NCBI RefSeq assembly: GCF_965641715.1
Contig: NZ_OZ282453.1
DNA from: Escherichia coli
GTDB lineage: Bacteria > Pseudomonadota > Gammaproteobacteria > Enterobacterales > Enterobacteriaceae
Direction: 5' to 3' (one strand)
Length of the DNA: 64,000 nucleotides
Positions 8,086 to 58,297 of the stretch are shown here, in pieces. Each line of letters begins with the position of its first letter. Positions within the stretch are counted from its first letter, which is position 1. Position numbers and translations under genes: made by a program. The notes below the pieces were generated by a model. It worked only from the letters and a program-made list of their open reading frames with translations. It ran no database searches and was not told where the DNA came from.

Positions 8086-9233
8086 TATTGCATTGCTTTA
8101 TAAGCGGTTACCGCCTCAGATACAACCTCGCTGTTGGCATCAAGCCCGGAAATCTGTGCCAGCGCCGCCTGCGGACCTTTGTCAGCGATCAGTGCTGCCA
8201 GTTCCTGAGCCTGCGGATCATCTTCACTGCGGAAGTGCATTGCAGCGGCAATACCTTCAATCAGGTTTTTATGTGGCAGACCATATTCCAGCGTACCGAG
8301 CAGTGGCTTGATCAGACGGTCGCCTGCGCTCAGTTTACGCAGCGGCTGACGGCCTACGCGCTCTACATCATCTTTCAGATACGGGTTCTCAAAACGACCG
8401 AGGATTTTCTGGATGTACGCCGCATGCTTGTCAGCGTCAAAGCCGTAACGCTTGATCAGTACCGCGCCACTTTCTTCCATCGCACCTTTTACCACCGCGC
8501 GGATTTTCTCGTCGAGAATAGCGTCACGAATGGTCTGATGACCGGCCAGTTTTCCGAGGTACGCGGTTATAGCATGACCCGTGTTCAGGGTGAAGAGTTT
8601 ACGTTCGACAAATGCCATCAGGTTGTCGGTTAACTCCATGCCTGGGATGTTCGGCAGTGCGCCTTTGAACTGAGTTTTATCGACAATCCATTCGCTGAAG
8701 GTTTCTACCGTCACTTCCAGCGGATCGTTAGTTGCAGAAGCCGAAGGCGGTACGATGCGGTCAACGGCGGAATCGACAAAGCCAACGTGTTCTTCTACCC
8801 ACGCTTTGGCGTCTTCCGGCAGGGCGTTCATCACATGGCCTTTCAGTTGCGTGGTGCCGCGGACCATGTTTTCACAAGCGATGATGTTCAGCGGAGATTC
8901 ATTACCTTGTTCTTTACGTTTCACCAGCCCTTTGGCGATAGCCGGAGCAATACGTTCCAGCACTACCGGGCCAACGGCGGTAGTGACTAAATCAACCTGA
9001 GCAATGAGATCAACGACATCATCACCAATGCTGCTGACAGCATTGACGCCAGAAACGGTATCTACCTGCTCGGTTTCACCGACCACATGAACCTGATAGC
9101 TATGACGGGCATTCAGGGCATCAAGTACCACCTGATTGACATCGGCAAACGTCAGTTGTATACCCGCGTCTGCCAGCAGTTTACCGATAAAGCCACGACC
9201 GATATTACCTGCGCCAAAATGTAATGCTTTCAT
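8085..9233 (-). CDS. mtlD: Mannitol-1-phosphate 5-dehydrogenase, 382 aa
   Basis: ORF track gives a 485-aa frame; true start taken at [17 protein letters not shown] (Rossmann motif), ATG confirmed at 9233, giving the K-12 length. Confidence 0.93.
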
Positions 9234-24361: not shown

Positions 24362-24447
24362 ATGCCTGATAAGACGTGTTAAGCGTCGCATCAGGCAATG
24401 TGCTCCTTACGTTGGATGCGGCGCGAGTGCCTTATCCAACCTACGGA
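24362..24447. repeat. REP pair between yiaT and the accessory hydrolase gene
   Basis: Units gcctgataagacgtgttaagcgtcgcatcaggc and ggatgcggcgcgagtgccttatccaacctacgg; the second overlaps the hydrolase stop. Confidence 0.55.
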
Positions 24448-26411
24448 TGGCAATGCTTTTCCTCATTCACCCAGATCCGCATTTCGCCTTCACCCCGGTT
24501 GGCCCAGCTAAACCACGGGATAAAGGTCAGAGTTTGCGTCTGGCGTTTGGCTGGCGCGCTGTCGTAATGCCACAGCGGTTGCTGCTCTGGATTGCTCTGT
24601 TCATACCGGTAACCCGGTGCCTGGATTAAGATCTTATGGCTAAACAATCCCTTGCCTTCAAATGTCGTAAATGGCGCATCGGTGGGCAGCCACAGATTAT
24701 GCAGTGACTCGCCGTTGTCGGCCTGTTCCAGGCAATACACCAGCGGGCCGCGCTGAATCGCCACTTTTCCGGCGACGTGACGCACCAGCGGGTTACCGTA
24801 AACGCGGCGTACCGGCATCGGCAAAGTCAGATTCAGCGTATCGCCCTCCTGCCATTCGCGGGTAATGTGCAAATACCCTTTACGAATATCCTGCTCGACC
24901 TCTTCCCCATTCAATATGATCTGCGGCTGTGTGCACCAGTCCGGCAGACGTAAAGCCAGCGTATGACGTACCGGCTGGGGCGATTCAACCGCAATCGTCA
25001 CCTGCTCCTGCCACGGATAGTTCCCGCTAACCCGCAGGCGCAGCGTGCCATTTTCTACCGGCACTTCCATGCTGTTTCCTGCGTATATGTTGATATACAA
25101 CGCATCTTCACGCGGCGTGTAGAGATAATGACCAATCGAGGTCAGCACGCGGGCGATATTTGGCGGACAACAAGCGCAGCCAAACCAACGCTGGCGGATC
25201 GGTTTAACGTGATCGTAGATATGGTTGAATTTCAGCGATTTTGGATGTACTTCCAGCGGATTCACATAGAAGAAATGTTTGCCATCCAGCGCCATGCCGC
25301 CGAGCACGGTGTTGTACAGTGCACGCTCCATCACATCGGCATATTGACTGTCGCCTTCCATTTCCAGCATTCGTCGGGCAAACATCATCAGGCCGATGGA
25401 GGCGCAACTTTCAGCGTATACCGTGTCATTCGGCAGATCGTAATCGCTAGTGAACGCTTCGCCGCTGCTTTGCGAGCCAATGCCGCCGGTAATATATAAC
25501 TGACGCTGGGCCATATTGTTCCACAGCCGCAGGCAGTCCTGACGCTTGCTGTCATCGTGACTTAAACGCGCGAGATGCGCGACGCCGGTCATCAGATAGA
25601 CAAAACGTACCGCGTGACCGATGGCGGTTTGCTGTTGCGCAAGGGGTAAATGTGCCTGGCTGTAGGCTTTGTCTTTCACCATCCACGCCGGGCCGTAGGT
25701 GTGCCAGTGCGATGTCTGCCCGCGCTTTTCATATTCCTGGTCGTAATAGTGCGGTTGCGCACCACGCTGTTCGACAAAATAGTTCGTCAGCGCCAGGTAG
25801 CGCGGCTCTTCAGTCACTTCATACAGGCGCATTAGTGCCAGTTCAATTTCCGGGTGACCAGGATAACCGTGTAACTTACTTTCATCTGGACCAAATACGC
25901 TGTCGATATGATCGGCCAGGCGGCAAACGACCCCCAGCAAGCGCCGTTTTCCCGTGGCCTGGAAGAAGGCGACTCCGGCTTCAATCAGATGACCTGCGCA
26001 GTAAAGTTCATGACACTCCGCCAGATTGCTCCAGCGTTCTTCGGGTGCTTTTACCGTAAAGTAAGTATTGAGATAGCCGTCTTCGCATTGGGCGGAGGCG
26101 ATCAGTTCGATTACCTCGTCGGCGGTTTTTTCCAGTTCGGCGTCCGGCTTCTGGCACAGCGACCAGGCTACCGCTTCCAGCCATTTGGCGACGTCGCTGT
26201 CCTGAAACACCATCCCGTAAAATTCACCCTCCTGAAGTCCGGCGGCAATGCGAAAGTTTTCAATCGCATGGCTGGGTTCCGCTTCTGGGATACGATCGTT
26301 CAAGGCATCCCACTGATAAGGAATCACCACGTCGCGGACCAGTTGTTGGTACTGACCGAGGAACGGATCGCTGACCGTCAGTTTATGCAGATCGACTTCC
26401 GAAATGTTCAT
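24441..26411 (-). CDS. Glycoside hydrolase family 127-like protein (DUF1680; beta-L-arabinofuranosidase-type), about 656 aa
   Basis: Motifs AESCASIG (Glu-x-Cys) and WFGCACCPPN (Cys pair) resemble the Zn/catalytic-Cys site of GH127 HypBA1; start refined to ATG 26411 with SD aaggag overlapping the upstream stop. Confidence 0.75.
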   Translation of the reverse strand: MNISEVDLHKLTVSDPFLGQYQQLVRDVVIPYQWDALNDRIPEAEPSHAIENFRIAAGLQEGEFYGMVFQDSDVAKWLEAVAWSLCQKPDAELEKTADEVIELIASAQCEDGYLNTYFTVKAPEERWSNLAECHELYCAGHLIEAGVAFFQATGKRRLLGVVCRLADHIDSVFGPDESKLHGYPGHPEIELALMRLYEVTEEPRYLALTNYFVEQRGAQPHYYDQEYEKRGQTSHWHTYGPAWMVKDKAYSQAHLPLAQQQTAIGHAVRFVYLMTGVAHLARLSHDDSKRQDCLRLWNNMAQRQLYITGGIGSQSSGEAFTSDYDLPNDTVYAESCASIGLMMFARRMLEMEGDSQYADVMERALYNTVLGGMALDGKHFFYVNPLEVHPKSLKFNHIYDHVKPIRQRWFGCACCPPNIARVLTSIGHYLYTPREDALYINIYAGNSMEVPVENGTLRLRVSGNYPWQEQVTIAVESPQPVRHTLALRLPDWCTQPQIILNGEEVEQDIRKGYLHITREWQEGDTLNLTLPMPVRRVYGNPLVRHVAGKVAIQRGPLVYCLEQADNGESLHNLWLPTDAPFTTFEGKGLFSHKILIQAPGYRYEQSNPEQQPLWHYDSAPAKRQTQTLTFIPWFSWANRGEGEMRIWVNEEKHCHP

Positions 26412-26421
26412 CTTGTGCTCC

Positions 26422-27822
26422 TTAAGGCTGTACATGACGCTGACGCAGGTCGGTAGCTATGCGTGACATCATAGGATTATTGAGTTTGCAAAAGCGGATC
26501 GCCCCTGCCAGCAGCAGGTGGAATAGCGCAGGCAGTAATGTTTCCATCGCCGCGATCCCGCCAAGCGAACTGGCGGTCTGGTTTTCCACGCCAGGCTGGT
26601 AGGCGACAAAAATAAACAGCAGGCTGATGATCCCGGCGCTGGAGGCCCAGGCCAGCTTGATGAAAAACAGATTGAAGGCGAAGTTCATGCCGGAAGAACG
26701 TACGCGGGTTTTCCACTCGCCGTAGTCATCGGCAAAGGCCATCAATGAGAAGTGCAGTGGCAATGTGAAGCCAAGAATCACGCCATTACCGAGGATCACC
26801 GCCAGCCACAGCGTTTGATAAGCCGGGCCGGAGGGCAGGAACCACATCAACACCGCCAGCGCAGCGAGGAGCTGGTTGGTGTAGTAGTAAATTTTGACGG
26901 TATCGAAACGCCGCGTTAACGGGCTGACAATCACCGAGCCGATAATGGAGGCGAAGGTGACCATGGTGAAGAACAGCGACGTGTAGCCCGTACTGCCTTG
27001 TAAGACGTAGGTAATGAAGTACATATACCCACCGCCGCGAATGTTAAAGACGTTAATCAGCAGGAAAGACATGACCAGCATCAGCAGCAGTTGGTCGTTG
27101 TTCCGCAGCCCGGCAAGATGTTCGCGCAGGGTAAATTTCCCCATTGTGGAGAGTGGCACCCGTTCACGAACCCAGAAGAAACAGCACAGAAACATCACCA
27201 CGGCGATGGCGCACAGCACGCCGACGCCCAGTTGATAGCCGCGCGCGGCATTACCCTGACCGAAGAGATCTACCATCCACGGTAAGCCTACCGAAACCAG
27301 AAATCCCGCTACGCCACAGAGAACGAATCGCCAGGACTGGCAGGAGATCACTTCATTGTGGCGGGTGGTCATGGTGTTGATCAGCGCGCAGTACGGTACG
27401 TTGATGGCGGTATAACCGACTGAAAGGAGCAGGTAAGTACCGAACGCCCAGGCGATTTTTACTCCCATGCTGGCATCTGGCACGGTGAACGTCAGGATGC
27501 CGATAATGCCGATGGGAATGGCAATCCATAGCTGCCACGGACGAAAGCGCCCCCATCGGCTTTGCGTCCGGTCGGCAATGACGCCCATCACCGGGTCGGA
27601 GATAGCATCAAACACGCGCAGTGCAATAAACAGCGTGCCAACCAGCGCCGGAGTTAATCCAAAAACGTCGGTGTAGAAAAAGGTGAGAAAGTTCATGATC
27701 AGGCAAGTTATTACGGTGCCGCCTGCGTCACCCAGGCCGTAGCCTATTTTTTCCCGTACAGATAACGCATCGTCAATTTTACCTTTAGCGATATCAGCGG
27801 TAGTAATCGGTGTAGAGGTCAT
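26422..27822 (-). CDS. Glycoside-pentoside-hexuronide (GPH) family sugar:cation symporter, 466 aa
   Basis: About 12 predicted transmembrane segments; GYGLGD motif near the N-terminus as in MelB/YicJ-type transporters; SD gagga upstream of the start. Confidence 0.75.
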
Positions 27823-28047
27823 AGATATTCCTCGTGAATAGGGAGCAATTTTTAGTTTTATTGAAATGACCTGATTAATTCTGCCGTGAACGGGAATATC
27901 AACAAGGCGAGAAAAGAGTAAAAAAAGGTGACGATTCCGACCTGAATTTAAAAGTGTGAAATGGATCAGGTGAAATTAATGTTTTTGATTAATAATCAAA
28001 AGGTAATGTGTTTAATCATTGATGAATAAGCGGGAAATTACATATCA
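27823..28047. promoter_or_regulatory. AT-rich divergent promoter region between the symporter operon and the AraC-type regulator, with direct repeat GTGAAAT-N7-GTGAAAT
   Basis: Read directly; direct repeats at 27954-27977 are typical of AraC/XylS-type operator half-sites. Confidence 0.35.
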
Positions 28048-28863
28048 ATGCTCGAATTATCCATGACGTTACCGATTAAAGTGCAAAATGGTGGATTATT
28101 TATTTCCCGTGGCGTAGGGAGGCATCCTGCAAGGCGGCTGGAGTCATGGGAAATTATCTTTGTCGAAAAAGGTCGATTAACGATTCAGGAAGAAGAACGG
28201 ATATTTCTGGTCGATGCGGGAGAGAGTTTATTACTCTGGCCGAACCGACAACATGTTGGGGTGGAGGATTTTCCCGCCGATCTCAAATTTTACTGGCTGC
28301 ATTTTGAGGTTAAAGCGCCGGACAACGACCCTCGCTGGCTTACTCATCTTAGCGTGCCGCAACAAACGAAGGTTGTCGATCCGCAGGCGCTGGTGGCCCT
28401 GTTTCGCCAGTTCTTAAGCGAACAGGAAAAGCATCAACGCACTCCGGCGCTGGAGTTTATTGTGCTGCTCATTTTGCAGCAGCTCACCCGTGACGCGCGT
28501 CTTGATGAACAGGCCGATGGCGCAGGCACCACCCTTGCCTGGAAAGCGCAGAAACTGATCCGCACGCAATATCATCGCCCGCTTTCTACGGCGCTTCTGG
28601 CCCGCGAGCTGTACTGCAATGCCGATTATCTTGGGCGCGTCTACCGGCGGGTGTTTCATCTGACGTTAACAGAAGCAATCCATCGCCAGCGGGTGCGCGA
28701 AGCCGAAAAGCTGTTAATTAGCGAAGCGCGATCGCTCACGGAAGTGGCGGCGTTGTGCGGGTTTAATGACGTTGGCTATTTCCGGCAGATTTTTCGCAAA
28801 CACACCGGTTTAACGCCAGCAGCGTGGAAGCGGCGTTACAGCAAGGAACATATCAATTCGTAG
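28048..28863 (+). CDS. AraC/XylS-family transcriptional regulator, 271 aa
   Basis: N-terminal cupin-like sugar-binding domain and C-terminal dual helix-turn-helix (ALCGFNDVGYFRQIFRKHTGLTPAAWKRRY); start could alternatively be Met6 at 28063. Confidence 0.75.
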   Translation: MLELSMTLPIKVQNGGLFISRGVGRHPARRLESWEIIFVEKGRLTIQEEERIFLVDAGESLLLWPNRQHVGVEDFPADLKFYWLHFEVKAPDNDPRWLTHLSVPQQTKVVDPQALVALFRQFLSEQEKHQRTPALEFIVLLILQQLTRDARLDEQADGAGTTLAWKAQKLIRTQYHRPLSTALLARELYCNADYLGRVYRRVFHLTLTEAIHRQRVREAEKLLISEARSLTEVAALCGFNDVGYFRQIFRKHTGLTPAAWKRRYSKEHINS

Positions 28864-28865
28864 TG

Positions 28866-28890
28866 CCGGGGCGATGAAGCCCCGGCGTGA
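28866..28890. terminator. GC-rich hairpin between the convergent AraC-type gene and sgbE (possible bidirectional terminator)
   Basis: gccggggcgatgaagccccggc palindrome directly after the AraC-type stop. Confidence 0.45.
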
Positions 28891-28894
28891 GGGA

Positions 28895-29590
28895 TTACTG
28901 CCCGTAATAGGCATTGTCTCCATGCTTACGCAGGTAGTGCTTATCCAGCAGTTCGTTTTGCATGGCAGGGAGCTGCGGCGCAAGCTGGCGCGAGAACAGG
29001 CCCATATAGGCGCACTCTTCCAGCACCACGGCGTTATGCACCGCATCGGCGGCGTTTTTTCCCCAGGCGAACGGGCCGTGAGAATGTACCAGTACCGCCG
29101 GGATTTGTGCCGGGTTCAAACCACGTTCTTCGAAGGTTTGAATGATCACTTCGCCAGTCTGGTATTCATACTCGCCGTTGATCTCCTCTGCTGTCATCTG
29201 GCGCGTGCAGGGGATGGTACCGTAAAAATAATCGGCGTGGGTGGTGCCCCAGGCGGGGAGATCCAGCCCGGCCTGCGACCAGATGGTAGCGTGGCGCGAG
29301 TGGGTATGCACAATACCGCCAATTTCGGCATAGCGACGGTAGAGCGCCAGATGCGTTGGCGTGTCGGACGAGGGCTTTTTGCTGCCTTCCACCACTTTAC
29401 CGCTGGCTATCTCAACCACCACCATATCGTCGGCGGTCATCACGTCGTACTCGACGCCGGAAGGTTTGATTACCATCCATTGCCGCGTTTCGTCTACCGC
29501 GCTGACATTGCCCCAGGTGAACGTCACCAGATGGTGAGCGGGAAGTGCCAGATTTGCCGCCAGCACGTCGGCTTTCAGTTGCTCTAACAT
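28895..29590 (-). CDS. sgbE: L-ribulose-5-phosphate 4-epimerase, 231 aa
   Basis: Class II aldolase/epimerase sequence; length and order sgbH-sgbU-sgbE. Confidence 0.92.
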
Positions 29591-30444
29591 ATAAATCCAG
29601 CCTCCTGCATACGCGCTTCAATCCAGCGCCGCGCCTGAATAATCTCCAGCACCGGCTCTTTGGCTTTTTCGGTCCACATCTCAATCAGGAAAGAACCGCG
29701 ATAGTTCAGTTCATGCAGCGTTTTGAAGATGCCAACGAAATCGACGCAGCCTTCGCCAAACGGCACATCACGGAACTGTCCGGGACTTTGCTCGGTGACT
29801 GGCTGGGTGTCTTTCAGGTGGATGGCGGCGATACGGTCAATGCCCAGTTTCAGTTCGGCGGGAACATCATTGCCCCAGGCGCTGAGGTTGCCGACGTCCG
29901 GGTAGACGGTGAACCACGGCGAGGCGAGCATCTCGTCCCATTTTTTCCATTTGCTGATGGAGTTCATAAACGCGGTATCCATAATCTCCACCGCCAGCAT
30001 TACTTGTGATGCCGCCGCCTGTTCGACTGCCCACGCCAGCCCTTCAGCAAAACGTTGTTGGGTGCCTTCGTCGTGGTCTTCGTAATAGACGTCATAACCT
30101 GCCAGCTGGATTGTGCGAATGCCGAGATCGCGCGCCAGGCGAATCGCTTTACTCATTATTTCCCGCGCCCGTTCGCGCACTGCCTCGTCCCGGCTGCCAA
30201 AGGGAAAACGACGATGGGCAGACAGGCACATTGACGGAATGGCAACACCCGTTTCGATCATCGCAGTGACCAGCGAAGCACGTTGTGCGGCGCTCCAGTC
30301 AAGACGTGAGAGCCGTTCGTCGGTTTCATCCACCGACATTTCGACGAAATCAAAACCGCAGCTTTTTGCCAGCACCAGCCGCTCCGGCCAGGAGAGATCT
30401 TTCGCCAGCGCTTTTTCATAAATCCCTAACGGATGATTACGCAC
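29584..30444 (-). CDS. sgbU: L-xylulose-5-phosphate 3-epimerase, 286 aa
   Basis: ORF track frame is longer; start placed at GTG 30444 ([11 protein letters not shown]...) to give the K-12 length; overlaps sgbH 3' end by 8 nt. Confidence 0.85.
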
Positions 30445-31099
30445 GCTTGCCTCCCCAGATAGCGTCGATTTGCGCATGAAAATCAGCGGCCACCTGTGCC
30501 GGATTTGCCGCGCCTGCCAGTGCTCTCCCGGCAATAAACGCTTTCACGCGGATATCTTTAAACAGCGGCAGGTCAGCAGGGGTAATCCCGCCAGTAATGG
30601 AAAGCTCAAGGCCGATATCTGAAAGCGCCTTCATGCGTGCCAGATCGGCTTCACCCCACTGTTGCCCGCTGGCCTGTGCATCACGACCGCGATGATAAAT
30701 GGCCTGCCGCACGCCAATACGATGCCAGTCGCGGGCGTCGTCCAGCGTCCAGTTACCGAACAGCTCTATCTGAATTTCACCCCCGCAGCGTTGCGCCATT
30801 GCGTGGCCTTTTTCTACCGTCGCGAGCGGCGCGGCGCAGATGATGGTCATCCAGTTAGCGCCTGCGCCAAACGCCTGTTGCGCGAGCGTTTCACCAGCGT
30901 CGGCGACCTTCCAGTCAGCAACGATGATTTTGTCCGGGCACTGTTCGCGCAAGGCTTTCACCGCGCCCAGCCCTTCGTTTAAACAGAGAATGGTGCCAGC
31001 TTCGACGATATCGACGCTGTCTTTTAACAGCGTCACGTCGCGCTGTGCGTCTTCAAGTGATGAGTGGTCGAGGGCCAGTTGCAGAAGTGGTCGGCTCAT
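30437..31099 (-). CDS. sgbH: 3-keto-L-gulonate-6-phosphate decarboxylase, 220 aa
   Basis: OMP-decarboxylase-like fold sequence; start overlaps the lyxK stop. Confidence 0.92.
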
Positions 31100-32592
31100 A
31101 ATGTGTGCTCCTTGATGCGGGCGTGAAAGCCCTGAAGTGCGGCAATGAGATGCTGATAGCGTTGATATTTTTGTTGGTAAAGCTGATGGGCGGTCATATC
31201 CGGTAGCAGGGTGCGTACCGGGTGCTGCAAGTCACGTTGGGCTTCGCTGAAATCGCGATAAACCCCGGTGCCGACGCGGGCGGCAAGTGCCGCACCAAAG
31301 CAGCCGGTTTCTTCCACCTGCGGCAGCTCAATACGCAGGCCGCTAACGTCCGCCAGCATTTGCATCCAGACATCGGAGTGCGCCGGGCCGCCAGTCACGC
31401 GCAGGGTGTGCACATCAGTAAAACGTTCGCGCATCCGGTTGAGATGAGTCATATGGCAGAACACCACCCCTTCATAGATGGCCTGCAACAGGTGCGCGCG
31501 GGTGTGAATGGCCTGCATCCCGTAGAAACCGCTGGTCATCTCGAGTCCGGCGTTGCTGCCGTACAGGAATGGCAGGAAAAAGAGATCGCCACCGGCCTTC
31601 GGTAAGCTGGCAACGGCCTGGTTGATCTCATCAAACGAGATTTCTCCCCACTGTGCGGTAAACCATTCGAGGTTGCCGGAAGAGGTAGGGCTGGCTTCGT
31701 GAACGATAAATTCACCATCGTTAACGTAGCGACCATAGACATACGGATGCGCTTCACCGTCACGTAAACCACGGGTTATGCCGCTGGTCACCGCCCAGGT
31801 GCCCATCACCGCATTAAGGGTAAATTCGTCTTCGATCCCGGCACAGAGTGCGGTGGAAACCACATCAAACAGGCCGCCGACAACGGGCGTACCCGCTTTC
31901 AGACCGGTCAGTACGGCTGTCTGAGCGGTGATCTCCCCGCAGATTTCGGCAGATCCGACAACAGGCGGCAGGGTGTGATTGATTTCAGCGATCCCCAGCC
32001 AGTCGGTGAGGCACGGGTCATATTCCCCAAGACTCATGTTGTAGAGATTGGACTCAGAAATATTGCTCTCTTCACAGCCTTTGACGCCGGTTAAACACCA
32101 GCGCAGGTAGTCGTGCGTCATCATCACGCAGCCAATTTGCGCGTAGCGTTCTGGTTCGTGCTCTTTCAGCCAGCGTAACAGCGACACCGGATGCCCGGTC
32201 CACAAGGTTTGTCGGGTCAACGGGTAGAGTTTTTCCGGGATGCCATCTTCCTGCCAGCGACGAACGATTTCCATCGCCCGGCGATCCGAGGACAAAATGG
32301 CGTTACCGAGCGGCTTGTTGTTTTTATCCAGCAAAAACAAGCCCTTTCCCTGTGCGGAGATACCGATACCCACTATTTGCTCCCCGCTAACGCCGGAATG
32401 GGTAAGCAGGGCGCGAATGACAGCCATGCAGCATTGCCACAGTTCTGCCATATCGCGCTCTGCCCAACCTGGCTGCGGGCTTAATGCGCACAGCGGCAGG
32501 CGCTGCACGCCTGCCTCCCGGCCTTCGCGGTCATACAGCCCGGCTTTCAGCCAGCTACCGCCACAATCTAACCCCAGCCAGTATTGCGTCAT
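31096..32592 (-). CDS. lyxK: L-xylulose/3-keto-L-gulonate kinase, 498 aa
   Basis: FGGY carbohydrate kinase family; length and position match. Confidence 0.92.
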   Translation of the reverse strand: MTQYWLGLDCGGSWLKAGLYDREGREAGVQRLPLCALSPQPGWAERDMAELWQCCMAVIRALLTHSGVSGEQIVGIGISAQGKGLFLLDKNNKPLGNAILSSDRRAMEIVRRWQEDGIPEKLYPLTRQTLWTGHPVSLLRWLKEHEPERYAQIGCVMMTHDYLRWCLTGVKGCEESNISESNLYNMSLGEYDPCLTDWLGIAEINHTLPPVVGSAEICGEITAQTAVLTGLKAGTPVVGGLFDVVSTALCAGIEDEFTLNAVMGTWAVTSGITRGLRDGEAHPYVYGRYVNDGEFIVHEASPTSSGNLEWFTAQWGEISFDEINQAVASLPKAGGDLFFLPFLYGSNAGLEMTSGFYGMQAIHTRAHLLQAIYEGVVFCHMTHLNRMRERFTDVHTLRVTGGPAHSDVWMQMLADVSGLRIELPQVEETGCFGAALAARVGTGVYRDFSEAQRDLQHPVRTLLPDMTAHQLYQQKYQRYQHLIAALQGFHARIKEHTL

Positions 32593-37144: not shown

Positions 37145-37993
37145 ATGGGGAAAGAAGTGATGGGGAAAAAAGAGAACGAGATGGCGCAGGAAAAAGAGCG
37201 TCCAGCCGGAAGCCAGAGTCTGTTTCGCGGGTTGATGCTGATTGAGATTTTGAGCAACTATCCAAACGGTTGTCCGTTGGCTCATCTTTCGGAGCTGGCT
37301 GGTTTAAATAAGAGTACCGTCCATCGCTTATTGCAGGGATTACAGTCCTGCGGCTATGTGACCACCGCGCCCGCTGCAGGGAGTTATCGCCTGACCACCA
37401 AATTTATTGCCGTCGGGCAGAAGGCGCTATCTTCGCTGAATATCATTCATATCGCCGCTCCGCATCTTGAGGCACTGAACATCGCCACTGGTGAAACCAT
37501 TAACTTCTCCAGCCGCGAAGACGATCACGCTATTTTGATTTATAAGCTGGAACCCACAACCGGGATGCTGCGAACCCGTGCCTATATTGGCCAGCATATG
37601 CCGCTCTACTGTTCCGCAATGGGCAAGATCTACATGGCGTTTGGTCACCCGGACTACGTGAAGTCATACTGGGAAAGCCATCAGCATGAGATCCAGCCGT
37701 TAACCCGCAATACCATTACCGAGCTGCCCGCGATGTTCGACGAACTGGCGCACATTCGTGAAAGCGGAGCGGCGATGGACAGAGAAGAAAACGAACTCGG
37801 CGTCTCCTGTATTGCTGTTCCGGTGTTTGATATTCATGGGCGGGTGCCGTACGCCGTGTCGATTTCGCTTTCGACATCACGTCTGAAACAGGTGGGAGAG
37901 AAAAATCTCCTGAAACCACTGCGTGAAACCGCGCAGGCTATTTCTAATGAACTGGGATTTACTGTCAGGGATGACCTGGGCGCGATCACATAA
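37145..37993 (+). CDS. yiaJ: IclR-family transcriptional repressor of the yiaK-S operon, 282 aa
   Basis: IclR-type N-terminal helix-turn-helix (LSELAGLNKSTVHRLLQGL) and C-terminal effector domain. Confidence 0.9.
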   Translation: MGKEVMGKKENEMAQEKERPAGSQSLFRGLMLIEILSNYPNGCPLAHLSELAGLNKSTVHRLLQGLQSCGYVTTAPAAGSYRLTTKFIAVGQKALSSLNIIHIAAPHLEALNIATGETINFSSREDDHAILIYKLEPTTGMLRTRAYIGQHMPLYCSAMGKIYMAFGHPDYVKSYWESHQHEIQPLTRNTITELPAMFDELAHIRESGAAMDREENELGVSCIAVPVFDIHGRVPYAVSISLSTSRLKQVGEKNLLKPLRETAQAISNELGFTVRDDLGAIT

Positions 37994-38614: not shown

Positions 38615-38717
38615 ATGCCAGATGCGGCGTAAACGCCTTATCCGGCCTACAAATTCTTCCAAATTCAATATATTGCAGAAATCATGTAGGCCTGATAAGC
38701 GTAGCGCATCAGGCAAT
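38615..38717. repeat. REP pair (BIME) between ysaA and avtA
   Basis: Units gatgcggcgtaaacgccttatccggcctac and gtaggcctgataagcgtagcgcatcaggcaat. Confidence 0.65.
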
Positions 38718-57306: not shown

Positions 57307-57585
57307 TCGCTAAATAATAGAGCAACCTTTAATAATCTTCTGCTGAATAAAGATTATCTCATATATTAATTTTATGAGATTTTTTTAGGATTATATCAAG
57401 GAGAAGAAACAAACTTATTAAGCTAGAATAGCCACGGGTGCTTGAGACTGTTTGTCTCAGGTATTCACCGAAAGGCAGACAGAGAAAAGCCCCACCTGAC
57501 TATAAATCAAAGTGAGGCCCCTCTATGCATAGACACCATAAGGTTAGCCTCTTACTCGTTGGAAATCAACACAGGGGGGCTGGGA

Positions 57586-57738
57586 ATGCCGCAGAAATAT
57601 AGATTGCTTTCTTTAATAGTGATTTGTTTCACGCTTTTATTTTTCACCTGGATGATAAGAGATTCACTGTGTGAATTGCATATTAAACAGGGGAGTTATG
57701 AGCTGGCGGCATTTTTAGCCTGCAATTTGAAAGAGTAA
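57586..57738 (+). CDS. hokA: Hok-family type I toxin, 50 aa
   Basis: MPQKYRLLSLIVICFTLLFFTWMIRDSLCELHIKQGSYELAAFLACNLKE: one transmembrane helix and conserved Hok C-terminus; an in-frame upstream extension exists in the ORF track (57442). Confidence 0.8.
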   Translation: MPQKYRLLSLIVICFTLLFFTWMIRDSLCELHIKQGSYELAAFLACNLKE

Positions 57739-57870
57739 GAGTCTTTGGCGGGAAATTATTCCCGCCTTTCTTACGGCGTTGGCATTCTCATTGCACCCAA
57801 ATTTATTTTTCACAAAAATAATACTAGATTTTATTACGCGATCGATTATTTATTTCCTGAAAAACAAATA

Positions 57871-57897
57871 AAAAAATCCCCGCCAAATGGCAGGGAT
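57871..57897 (-). terminator. Rho-independent terminator of cspA
   Basis: On the minus strand, hairpin atccctgcc / ggcgggga (one mismatch) followed by a U-run. Confidence 0.65.
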
Positions 57898-57924
57898 CTT
57901 AGATTCTGTGCTTTTAAGCAGAGA

Positions 57925-58137
57925 TTACAGGCTGGTTACGTTACCAGCTGCCGGGCCTTTAGCGCCGCTTTCGATGGTGAAGGACACTTTCTGACCTTCG
58001 TCCAGAGATTTGTAACCATCGTTCTGGATAGCAGAGAAGTGTACGAACACGTCTTTAGAGCCATCGTCAGGAGTGATGAAGCCGAAGCCTTTGTCAGCGT
58101 TGAACCATTTTACGATACCAGTCATTTTACCGGACAT
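57925..58137 (-). CDS. cspA: Major cold-shock protein CspA, 70 aa
   Basis: Exact CspA-type sequence with RNP motifs KGFGFI and VFVHF. Confidence 0.97.
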
Positions 58138-58297
58138 AGTGTATTACCTTTAATAATTAAGTGTGCCTTTCGGCGATATGGCGTGCTTTACAGATTTTGA
58201 AGCGTTAAAGGAATGTGCACTACGAGGGGTATCAACGATAACTCTTGAAGGGACTTGCCTTACTACACTGCTTTAATGGTCTGTACGTCAAACCGTT
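58138..58297 (-). promoter_or_regulatory. cspA long 5' UTR (cold-responsive RNA thermosensor region)
   Basis: About 160 nt upstream of the cspA start; role from established knowledge; exact transcription start not determined here. Confidence 0.6.

Follow-up and report, generated by a model that had tools for sequence, protein, structure and literature searches.

In Escherichia coli, the genes for L-xylulokinase and the three enzymes encoded downstream of it are described as part of the operon yiaKLMNO-lyxK-sgbHUE, the repressor of which is PlaR/YiaJ and which is under repression in standard conditions. The closest described cluster is lyxK-sgbH-sgbU-sgbE of E. coli K-12 MG1655 (b3580-b3583, NC_000913.3), for which spacings of -4 (lyxK/sgbH), -8 (sgbH/sgbU), and -7 (sgbU/sgbE) are listed among the K-12 gene spacings in Table S2 of Huber 2023. 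A paralogous set, ulaD-ulaE-ulaF of the E. coli L-ascorbate operon, has members of the three enzyme families of sgbH, sgbU, and sgbE in matching order, but with junctions of +9 (ulaD/ulaE) and -1 (ulaE/ulaF) where the sgb genes have -8 and -7.

Short overlaps are frequent in K-12, where 707 of the 2,987 co-directional gene pairs (24%) are spaced from -8 to +6 and the three commonest overlaps are -4, -1, and -8. Spacings of -8 to +10 are taken as predictive of termination-reinitiation. Among five native E. coli pairs with a -4 spacing that were tested, four were coupled and one, bioBF, was uncoupled (Huber et al., 2019). [quoted passage not shown] Coupling efficiency is lower as overlaps exceed -4, and coupling at the -7 and -8 junctions may therefore be less efficient.

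Gene layout of the sgb cluster

The window, i.e., the whole stretch of 64,000 nucleotides of E. coli DNA that was analysed, carries minus-strand ORFs of 332, 155, 157, 425, 328, 498, 220, 286, and 231 aa between 36943 and 28895, and a divergent ORF of 282 aa at 37145-37993 occupies the place of yiaJ/plaR. The resulting gene order on one strand, yiaK-yiaL-yiaM-yiaN-yiaO-lyxK-sgbH-sgbU-sgbE, matches that of K-12 and of the PGAP annotation. The yiaK-S cluster was present in 5,283 of the 5,426 complete E. coli genomes. At the DNA level, the cluster of the window is 96.4% identical to that of a K-12 strain, and the genes, their order, the starts and stops, the three spacings, and the GTG start of sgbU are the same as in MG1655. 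The differences include residue 5 of SgbU (Pro in the window, Gln in K-12) and an AraC-MFS-GH127 block downstream of sgbE, which is kept in the window and lost from K-12.

Table 1. Genes, junctions, and initiation signals of the lyxK-sgbHUE segment (positions in the window).
Feature	Position	Strand	Description
lyxK, L-xylulokinase	31096..32592	minus	498 aa, ATG start; FGGY-kinase profile matches
Shine-Dalgarno AAGGAG for sgbH	31108..31113	minus	Inside lyxK 3' end, 8 nt before ATG
lyxK/sgbH junction, ATGA	31096..31099	minus	sgbH ATG and lyxK stop TGA overlap, -4
sgbH	30437..31099	minus	220 aa, ATG start; NCBIfam NF009831 equivalog
Alternative sgbU start ATG (rejected)	30475..30477	minus	33 nt upstream of GTG, in frame
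Shine-Dalgarno GGGGAGG for sgbU	30450..30456	minus	Within SgbH codons ...W-G-G, about 4-5 nt before GTG
sgbH/sgbU junction, GTGCGTAA	30437..30444	minus	GTG of sgbU 8 nt before sgbH end, -8
sgbU, predicted L-ribulose-5-phosphate / L-xylulose-5-phosphate 3-epimerase	29584..30444	minus	286 aa, GTG start
Shine-Dalgarno AGGAGG for sgbE	29601..29606	minus	Inside sgbU 3' end; duplex energy -11.0 kcal/mol
sgbU/sgbE junction, ATGTTAG	29584..29590	minus	sgbE ATG 7 nt before sgbU end, -7
sgbE, predicted L-ribulose-5-phosphate 4-epimerase	28895..29590	minus	231 aa, start ATG 29590-29588

The assignments are carried by end-to-end profile matches. SgbH scored 451 bits against NF009831 (cutoff 294), with residues 1-220 on profile positions 1-220 of 220. 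SgbU scored 519.7 bits against TIGR00542 (cutoff 272; profile 1-279 of 279) and 510.4 bits against NF009689 (cutoff 200; profile 2-285 of 286), and the first residue aligned to the latter is the one after the GTG codon. Over its residues 1-231, SgbE matched NF009002 (509.8 bits, cutoff 386, profile 1-231) and the full TIGR00760 profile (443 bits, cutoff 389). An annotated lyxK stands at the homologous place in K-12 and the PGAP genomes.

The original prediction, made from the sequence, placed three consecutive overlaps in this segment: the lyxK stop with the sgbH start, a GTG of sgbU that gives the K-12 length with the sgbH 3' end, and the sgbE start with the sgbU 3' end. All three agree to the base with the ORFs and the sequence, at 4, 8, and 7 nt, respectively. 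Read from GTG 30444-30442, which shares the frame of the ORF that ends at 29584, sgbU is 861 nt, that is 286 codons and a stop (TAG at 29586-29584), and the sgbH stop TAA lies at 30439-30437. K-12 MG1655 is annotated with identical overlaps (sgbH 3748577-3749239, sgbU 3749232-3750092, and sgbE from 3750086), and three PGAP-annotated E. coli genomes of differing lineage show them too. The overlapping junctions are real, and like the GTG start they are ordinary and already known from the reference annotation. The overlaps follow a common pattern, and only the -7 geometry falls in a rarer phase class.

Two other features of the segment were considered and rejected. Internal promoters or terminators that would split the unit find no footing in the site counts: promoter-like sites inside the cluster numbered 0 against 1.8 expected, and terminator-like sites 6 against 4.3 +/- 2.1 expected, of which none stands out. 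A 237-aa ORF antisense to sgbE (28874-29587, plus strand) is taken to be a shadow ORF, since stops interrupt it in K-12 and in every other genus that was compared.

Proposed translational coupling at the overlaps

We consider it highly probable that the segment is the distal part of the yiaKLMNO-lyxK-sgbHUE operon, with a GTG-started sgbU and with overlaps at which ribosomes likely reinitiate. The four enzyme genes would be read head-to-tail from one mRNA, and ribosomes ending one gene would most likely reinitiate on the next by termination-reinitiation coupling, because each downstream start lies at most 8 nt from the upstream stop and has its Shine-Dalgarno sequence inside the upstream gene. 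Initiation of sgbU would occur at GTG 30444, served by the GGGGAGG built into the last SgbH codons, and de novo initiation driven by the Shine-Dalgarno sequences would supplement reinitiation. Such coupling would keep the production of consecutive pathway enzymes linked. The original prediction had also claimed coupling from the serial overlaps; for the sgb junctions this may fairly be inferred from the spacing.

Coupling is expected for co-directional genes on one transcript with spacings of about -8 to +6, a range that contains -4, -8, and -7, and for genes whose Shine-Dalgarno sequence lies inside the upstream 3' end, as AAGGAG, GGGGAGG, and AGGAGG do at the three junctions. The AAGGAG of sgbH pairs with the 16S rRNA tail at a duplex energy of -7.7 kcal/mol and is shared by Escherichia, Enterobacter, Kluyvera, and Hafnia, and the sgbE motif (GGAGG/GGAGA) is present in all genera compared. 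A coupling of the RNA-unfolding type is unsupported: 100-nt folds around the three junctions were no more stable than shuffled sequence (z = +0.7, +0.4, and +1.1), and the predicted folds leave the Shine-Dalgarno sequences and start codons largely unpaired.

The alternative that survives best is that stop codons drifted as the compact operon evolved, leaving overlaps that are selectively neutral, and that the genes are initiated independently with no meaningful coupling. The three downstream starts have strong Shine-Dalgarno sequences of their own and no occluding structure, and therefore independent initiation is also possible. In the INRI-seq data, which were obtained in vitro, initiating ribosomes load on a K-12 sgbU fragment (-30 to +153) that is separated from the rest of the operon and has no translation upstream of it. 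The sgbH/sgbU spacing differs between genera (+2, +1, -1, -4, and -8), the final four residues of SgbH vary (GKRA, GARA, EKHA, RTYA, and TQHA), the paralogous ula junctions are spaced differently again, one of the five tested -4 pairs is uncoupled, and the sgb enzymes carry no flag as subunits of heteromeric complexes in the Huber 2023 table. Nevertheless, every observed sgb spacing stays within a narrow range of -8 to +2 that is linked to reinitiation, the ATGTTAG at sgbU/sgbE is invariant in every compared locus in which sgbE lies next to sgbU, and coupling has been seen in most of the native overlapping pairs tested. We regard the neutral explanation as unlikely, though by no means negligible, and retain reinitiation as the preferred reading.

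The probable GTG start of sgbU

GTG 30444 is well supported as the probable start of sgbU by comparative DNA data, family profiles, and the reference annotation. The GGGGAGG upstream of it has a duplex energy of -11.3 kcal/mol, which is in about the top 1% of the 22-nt windows in the cluster, and a G-rich Shine-Dalgarno sequence stands at an equal distance from the sgbU start in all genera compared. The SgbU N-terminus is shared by 19 sequences that represent about 15 genera, and among the matches listed nearly all homologues are of 284-290 aa with this conserved N-terminus. In the 316-aa ORF, residues 32-315 match positions 2-285 of NF009689, and therefore position 1 of the profile corresponds to the GTG codon. 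Similarly, the sequence of the UlaE crystal structure aligns with SgbU from the residue after the GTG codon (residue 2).

At the codon homologous to this GTG, an ATG is found in Enterobacter, Kluyvera, Yersinia, and the related contigs L008, L009, L010, and L012. More broadly, sgbH-sgbU-sgbE of Salmonella, Enterobacter, Klebsiella, Kluyvera, and Hafnia share with E. coli the SgbU N-terminus, the Shine-Dalgarno sequence in the SgbH tail, and ATGTTAG, but start sgbU with ATG instead of GTG, with sgbH/sgbU spacings of +2 to -8. Two exact 50-mers across the sgbU start with GTG occurred in 1,472 and 1,419 complete E. coli genomes, and the same two with ATG in 3 and 0 (5,426 genomes searched). On these sequence comparisons, GTG is a derived and nearly fixed E. 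coli state that arose by an A-to-G change, with ATG in every other lineage compared.

That this change was an adaptive tuning of sgbU rather than drift seems doubtful. If it were, GTG could lower the autonomous initiation of SgbU and make SgbU synthesis more dependent on ribosomes arriving from sgbH, and the three ATG-carrying E. coli genomes would be revertants occurring in nature, in which the SgbH:SgbU ratio is altered. Selection could also have acted via the overlapping SgbH tail, in which the A-to-G substitution replaces His or Tyr by Arg.

It is improbable that initiation at this junction is heterogeneous, with near-cognate or neighbouring codons, CTG at position -14 and, in K-12-type alleles, GTG at -6, used alongside or in place of the annotated GTG. 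The proposal comes from INRI-seq, in which the peaks on the K-12 sgbU fragment are assigned, in the table of alternative sites, to CTG -14 (37 CPM, 3 replicates) and GTG -6 (36 CPM, 2 replicates) and not to the annotated GTG. The assignment of peaks to codons in these data has, however, a tolerance of +/-3 nt, and the signal was obtained in vitro on a fragment of 183 nt. The frame opened by CTG -14 ends after about 10 codons, and the -6 GTG of K-12 abuts the Shine-Dalgarno sequence with zero spacer. Before the sgbU GTG, the window reads GGC AAG C (SgbH ...GKRA) and K-12 reads GGT GCG C (SgbH ...GARA), and therefore the second in-frame GTG at -6 exists only in K-12; the window has GCA there, which makes the -6 codon unusable as a start here. 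In vivo, the Ribo-RET signal at sgbU is zero; the operon is under repression in standard conditions. The TRAINSPOTTER N-terminomics supplements make no mention of sgbU, and our literature search yielded neither N-terminal proteomics nor in vivo start-site mapping of SgbU.

Least credible is a start at the in-frame ATG 30477, which would give 297 aa and a 41-nt overlap with sgbH and would make the GTG an internal valine codon. In its favour, about 88% of annotated E. coli genes begin with ATG, more than with any other codon, and several RefSeq/nr entries of E. coli and Shigella SgbU have 297 aa. Against it, neither UlaE nor any orthologue has residues that match the additional 11, the NCBIfam family profile starts at the GTG codon, and the best Shine-Dalgarno-like match is weak (-7.0 kcal/mol) and stands 12 nt from the ATG. 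Kluyvera, Enterobacter, and Hafnia have in-frame stops upstream of the sgbU start, and the annotation gives 286 aa in K-12 (where the SgbU protein record is version.2) and in PGAP. This ATG is a by-product of the His-Ala codons of SgbH (CAT GCG), and is gone in L008 and L009 through the sgbH-synonymous CAC GCC/GCG. The INRI-seq fragment begins at -30, and therefore it does not test an ATG at -33. With GTG 30444 retained as the start, the earlier claim that naive ATG-based calls mis-size sgbU also holds, as the first in-frame ATG is 30477 and yields the length found in a minority of entries. In the databases, thousands of SgbU proteins are of 286 aa, and the 297-aa minority includes several RefSeq WP_ records.

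Conservation of the junctions across genera

The three junctions differ in how far they are kept. The ATGA of lyxK/sgbH is found in Escherichia, Enterobacter, and Kluyvera, and is absent from Hafnia and Yersinia. The sgbH/sgbU spacing differs among genera, and therefore this overlap itself is not conserved; the 8-nt geometry, with ATG in place of GTG, recurs in L008, L009, and L012, of which L012 is a metagenome contig. The SgbU proteins of L008 and L009 fall in clusters bearing Salmonella, Enterobacter, and Klebsiella names. At sgbU/sgbE, ATGTTAGA is identical in 12 of the 12 loci in which sgbE follows sgbU, a set drawn from Escherichia, Enterobacter, Kluyvera, Hafnia, and related contigs.

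SgbH-SgbU fusion proteins of 457-504 aa also occur in the databases as singletons or tiny clusters. These probably stem from indels in the overlap, not from programmed frameshifting.

Implications for annotation and overlap evolution

The 286-aa call from GTG is upheld as very probably the right one, and the 297-aa RefSeq/nr records are probably over-extended at the N-terminus. The significance of the finding goes little beyond such annotation hygiene, and the biology of the operon, i.e., the utilisation of L-ascorbate or 2,3-diketo-L-gulonate and of L-lyxose or L-xylulose, is unaffected by it. In essence, the sgb junctions offer a small, clean case of overlap evolution, in which the -7 junction (ATGTTAG) stays fixed from genus to genus and the one beside it drifts from +2 to -8.

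Gene Order and Overlaps in the lyxK-sgbHUE Cluster

From our analysis of the minus-strand ORFs of the window and their sequence, the three overlaps proposed by the original prediction were matched exactly in coordinates, and sgbU read from GTG 30444 has the claimed K-12 length, being 286 aa in the K-12 coordinates too (table below). The features under the cluster match annotated lyxK, ulaD (sgbH), sgbU, and araD (sgbE). Enzyme identities were checked with NCBIfam profiles by bit score against the model cutoff, which confirmed sgbH, sgbU, and sgbE end to end. Of 5,426 complete E. coli genomes, 5,283 carry a match to the 3.9-kb cluster, with identities of 94-98%. yiaKLMNO-lyxK-sgbHUE is described in the literature as a single operon under PlaR/YiaJ repression; inside the cluster, we found no promoter-like sites and no match to Rfam families.

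Genes and junctions of the lyxK-sgbHUE cluster in the window (spacing is nt from upstream stop to downstream start; negative values are overlaps)
Feature	Coordinates	Strand	Description	NCBIfam profile	Bits (cutoff)	Profile coverage
lyxK	32592-31096	-	ORF, 498 aa
sgbH	31099-30437	-	ORF, 220 aa	NF009831	451 (294)	1-220 of 220
sgbU	30444-29584	-	from GTG, 861 nt: 286 codons + stop	TIGR00542	519.7 (272)	1-279 of 279
sgbE	29590-28895	-	ORF, 231 aa	NF009002	509.8 (386)	1-231 of 231
lyxK/sgbH	31099-31096	-	ATGA, sgbH start over lyxK stop, -4
sgbH/sgbU	30444-30437	-	GTGCGTAA, sgbU GTG 8 nt ahead of sgbH end, -8
sgbU/sgbE	29590-29584	-	ATGTTAG, sgbE ATG 7 nt ahead of sgbU end, -7

Both the overlap geometry and the GTG start are on record, in the K-12 reference annotation as well as in a published gene-spacing table. 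In K-12 MG1655, lyxK ends at 3748580, sgbH spans 3748577-3749239, sgbU spans 3749232-3750092 (start region GGGGAGGTGCGCGTGCGTAA), and sgbE starts at 3750086, which gives the same overlaps as in the window. Table S2 of the spacing paper likewise agrees with the predicted pattern (lyxK/sgbH -4, sgbH/sgbU -8, sgbU/sgbE -7) and marks each pair as not forming a heteromeric complex; PGAP gives an identical geometry for three E. coli strains of differing origin. Such overlaps are not unusual, as 707 of 2,987 co-directional K-12 pairs (24%) are spaced -8 to +6, the commonest overlaps being -4, then -1 and -8, and only the -7 junction of this cluster belongs to a rarer phase class.

The Start Codon of sgbU

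The maximal ORF holding sgbU opens at TTG 30534 (316 aa), and its first in-frame ATG, at 30477, would give 297 aa. Several independent lines agree on GTG 30444, and we regard this start and the overlap geometry as correct with very high confidence. Alignment to SgbU homologues, proposed earlier as a check, supports the GTG: almost every homologue listed has a length of 284-290 aa, and a shared N-terminal motif begins at the same position in 19 aligned sequences from ~15 enterobacterial genera. The homologous codon is ATG in Enterobacter ludwigii, Kluyvera, Yersinia, and four other compared loci (L008, L009, L010, and L012), with the SgbU proteins of L008 and L009 falling in clusters carrying Salmonella, Enterobacter, and Klebsiella names. 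The sgbU frame 5' of the start is not conserved; Kluyvera, Enterobacter, and Hafnia have stop codons in it. Positions 2-285 of NF009689 (286 positions) lie on residues 32-315 of the 316-aa ORF, which places profile position 1 on the GTG codon, and the UlaE crystal-structure sequence (3cqh) also aligns from residue 32. GGGGAGG precedes the GTG with a 5-nt spacer, and its duplex with the 16S tail (-11.3 kcal/mol) ranks among roughly the strongest 1% of windows across the cluster.

An ATG 30477 start has a small set of 297-aa database entries in its favour, among which are several E. coli and Shigella proteins with RefSeq WP_ accessions (P0002 and P0126-P0130, with WP_215252594.1, WP_001232369.1, and others, beside the dominant 286-aa form); these entries bear out the remark that ATG-first calling yields wrong lengths. 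The best Shine-Dalgarno match of this ATG (-7.0 kcal/mol) is 12 nt away, and the ATG itself is a by-product of SgbH His-Ala codons (CAT GCG), lost through sgbH-synonymous changes (CAC GCC, CAC GCG) in L008 and L009. TTG 30534 is essentially without a Shine-Dalgarno sequence (-2.4 kcal/mol).

Published initiation data were also considered. [quoted passage not shown] The -6 GTG (9226-9228 of the K-12 locus, 6 nt upstream of the sgbU start) is confined to K-12-type alleles, the window having GCA there (30450-30448). These peaks show only de novo ribosome loading at the sgbH/sgbU junction in vitro and do not settle the codon. In vivo Ribo-RET gives zero signal at sgbU, a repressed gene, and SgbU is absent from the N-terminomics supplements searched.

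Conservation of the Junctions and Origin of the GTG

ATGTTAGA is identical at sgbU/sgbE in all 12 compared loci with sgbE after sgbU, because sgbU draws its last codon (TGT, Cys) and its stop (TAG) from the SgbE codons Met1-Leu2 (TTA)-Glu3 (GAR). SgbU ends in TA, not Cys, in Yersinia, where sgbE is not adjacent. Unlike this junction, the sgbH/sgbU spacing drifts across the compared loci: +2 (E. ludwigii, L010), +1 (Yersinia), -1 (Kluyvera), -4 (Hafnia, a 290-aa call), and -8 (E. coli, L008, L009, L012). The paralogous ulaD-ulaE-ulaF has spacings of +9 and -1, whereas sgbHUE has -8 and -7. Rare SgbH-SgbU fusion proteins (P0007, P0010, P0125, and P0133; 457-504 aa) probably reflect an indel of one base in the 8-nt overlap, or a sequencing error there.

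Alleles were counted as exact 50-mer matches spanning the sgbU start in E. coli genomes. The GTG 50-mer occurs in 1,472 genomes for the window-type allele and in 1,419 for a second allele (GGTGCGC; carried by strain PapM-32-1 and also by K-12, there with one further difference at codon 5), and with ATG substituted in three and none, respectively. The three ATG-bearing genomes (NZ_CP080146.1, NZ_CP132061.1, and NZ_CP134353.1) have otherwise window-type flanks, PGAP calls a 286-aa sgbU at that codon in one, and they could be revertants or retain the ancestral state. By parsimony, the GTG is a derived, nearly fixed state of E. coli. The same base changes His or Tyr to Arg in the overlapping SgbH frame, the SgbH tail being otherwise variable (GKRA, GARA, EKHA, RTYA, TQHA).

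Sequences Flanking the Cluster

Between sgbE and yiaT, the window block 24739-28759 involves an AraC-family ORF (28048-28863, +), an MFS/GPH transporter (26422-27822, -), and a glycoside hydrolase family 127 (GH127)-like ORF (24441-26435, -). In K-12, which aligns with the window on either side, ~4.0 kb is missing here, and the pseudogenes ysaC and ysaD are what is left of the ends. Enterobacter and Kluyvera contigs likewise have the AraC regulator and the transporter beside sgbE. A GC-rich perfect hairpin, GCCGGGGC-TTCATC-GCCCCGGC (28865-28886, -), occupies the 31 nt that separate sgbE from the convergent AraC-family gene, with no T-run after it and no place among the terminator-scan hits. 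A 237-aa ORF exactly antisense to sgbE (28874-29587, +) was treated as a shadow ORF: besides the window, two other E. coli strains keep it open, but stop codons break it in K-12, Enterobacter, Kluyvera, Hafnia, and others. In E. coli FP4 (NZ_CP072686.1), aldB directly follows sgbE and yiaM has a DUF4862 gene upstream, so the cluster differs on both flanks between lineages of E. coli. Outside the cluster, Rfam matches in the window (cspA thermoregulator, 57870-58297, -; sok antitoxin RNA (CssrC), 57436-57588, +; ES036/CssrF sRNA, 38651-38693, +) agree with the cspA to yiaK region of K-12.

Translational Coupling

Both the spacing and the placement of the Shine-Dalgarno sequences inside genes fit a termination-reinitiation model. 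A strong dependence on such coupling is argued against by several observations: coupling declines as overlaps exceed -4 in length, all three downstream Shine-Dalgarno sequences are strong, RNA at the junctions has no greater folding stability than shuffled sequence (z = +0.4 to +1.1), ribosomes load de novo in vitro, and one of the five native E. coli -4 pairs tested was uncoupled. The original prediction was right that sgbU starts at GTG and that lengths are mis-called, and its coupling was a reasonable, though unproven, reading. Given the fit of spacing and Shine-Dalgarno sequences and the four coupled pairs among the five, translational coupling is the likeliest interpretation of the overlaps and is, on balance, probable.
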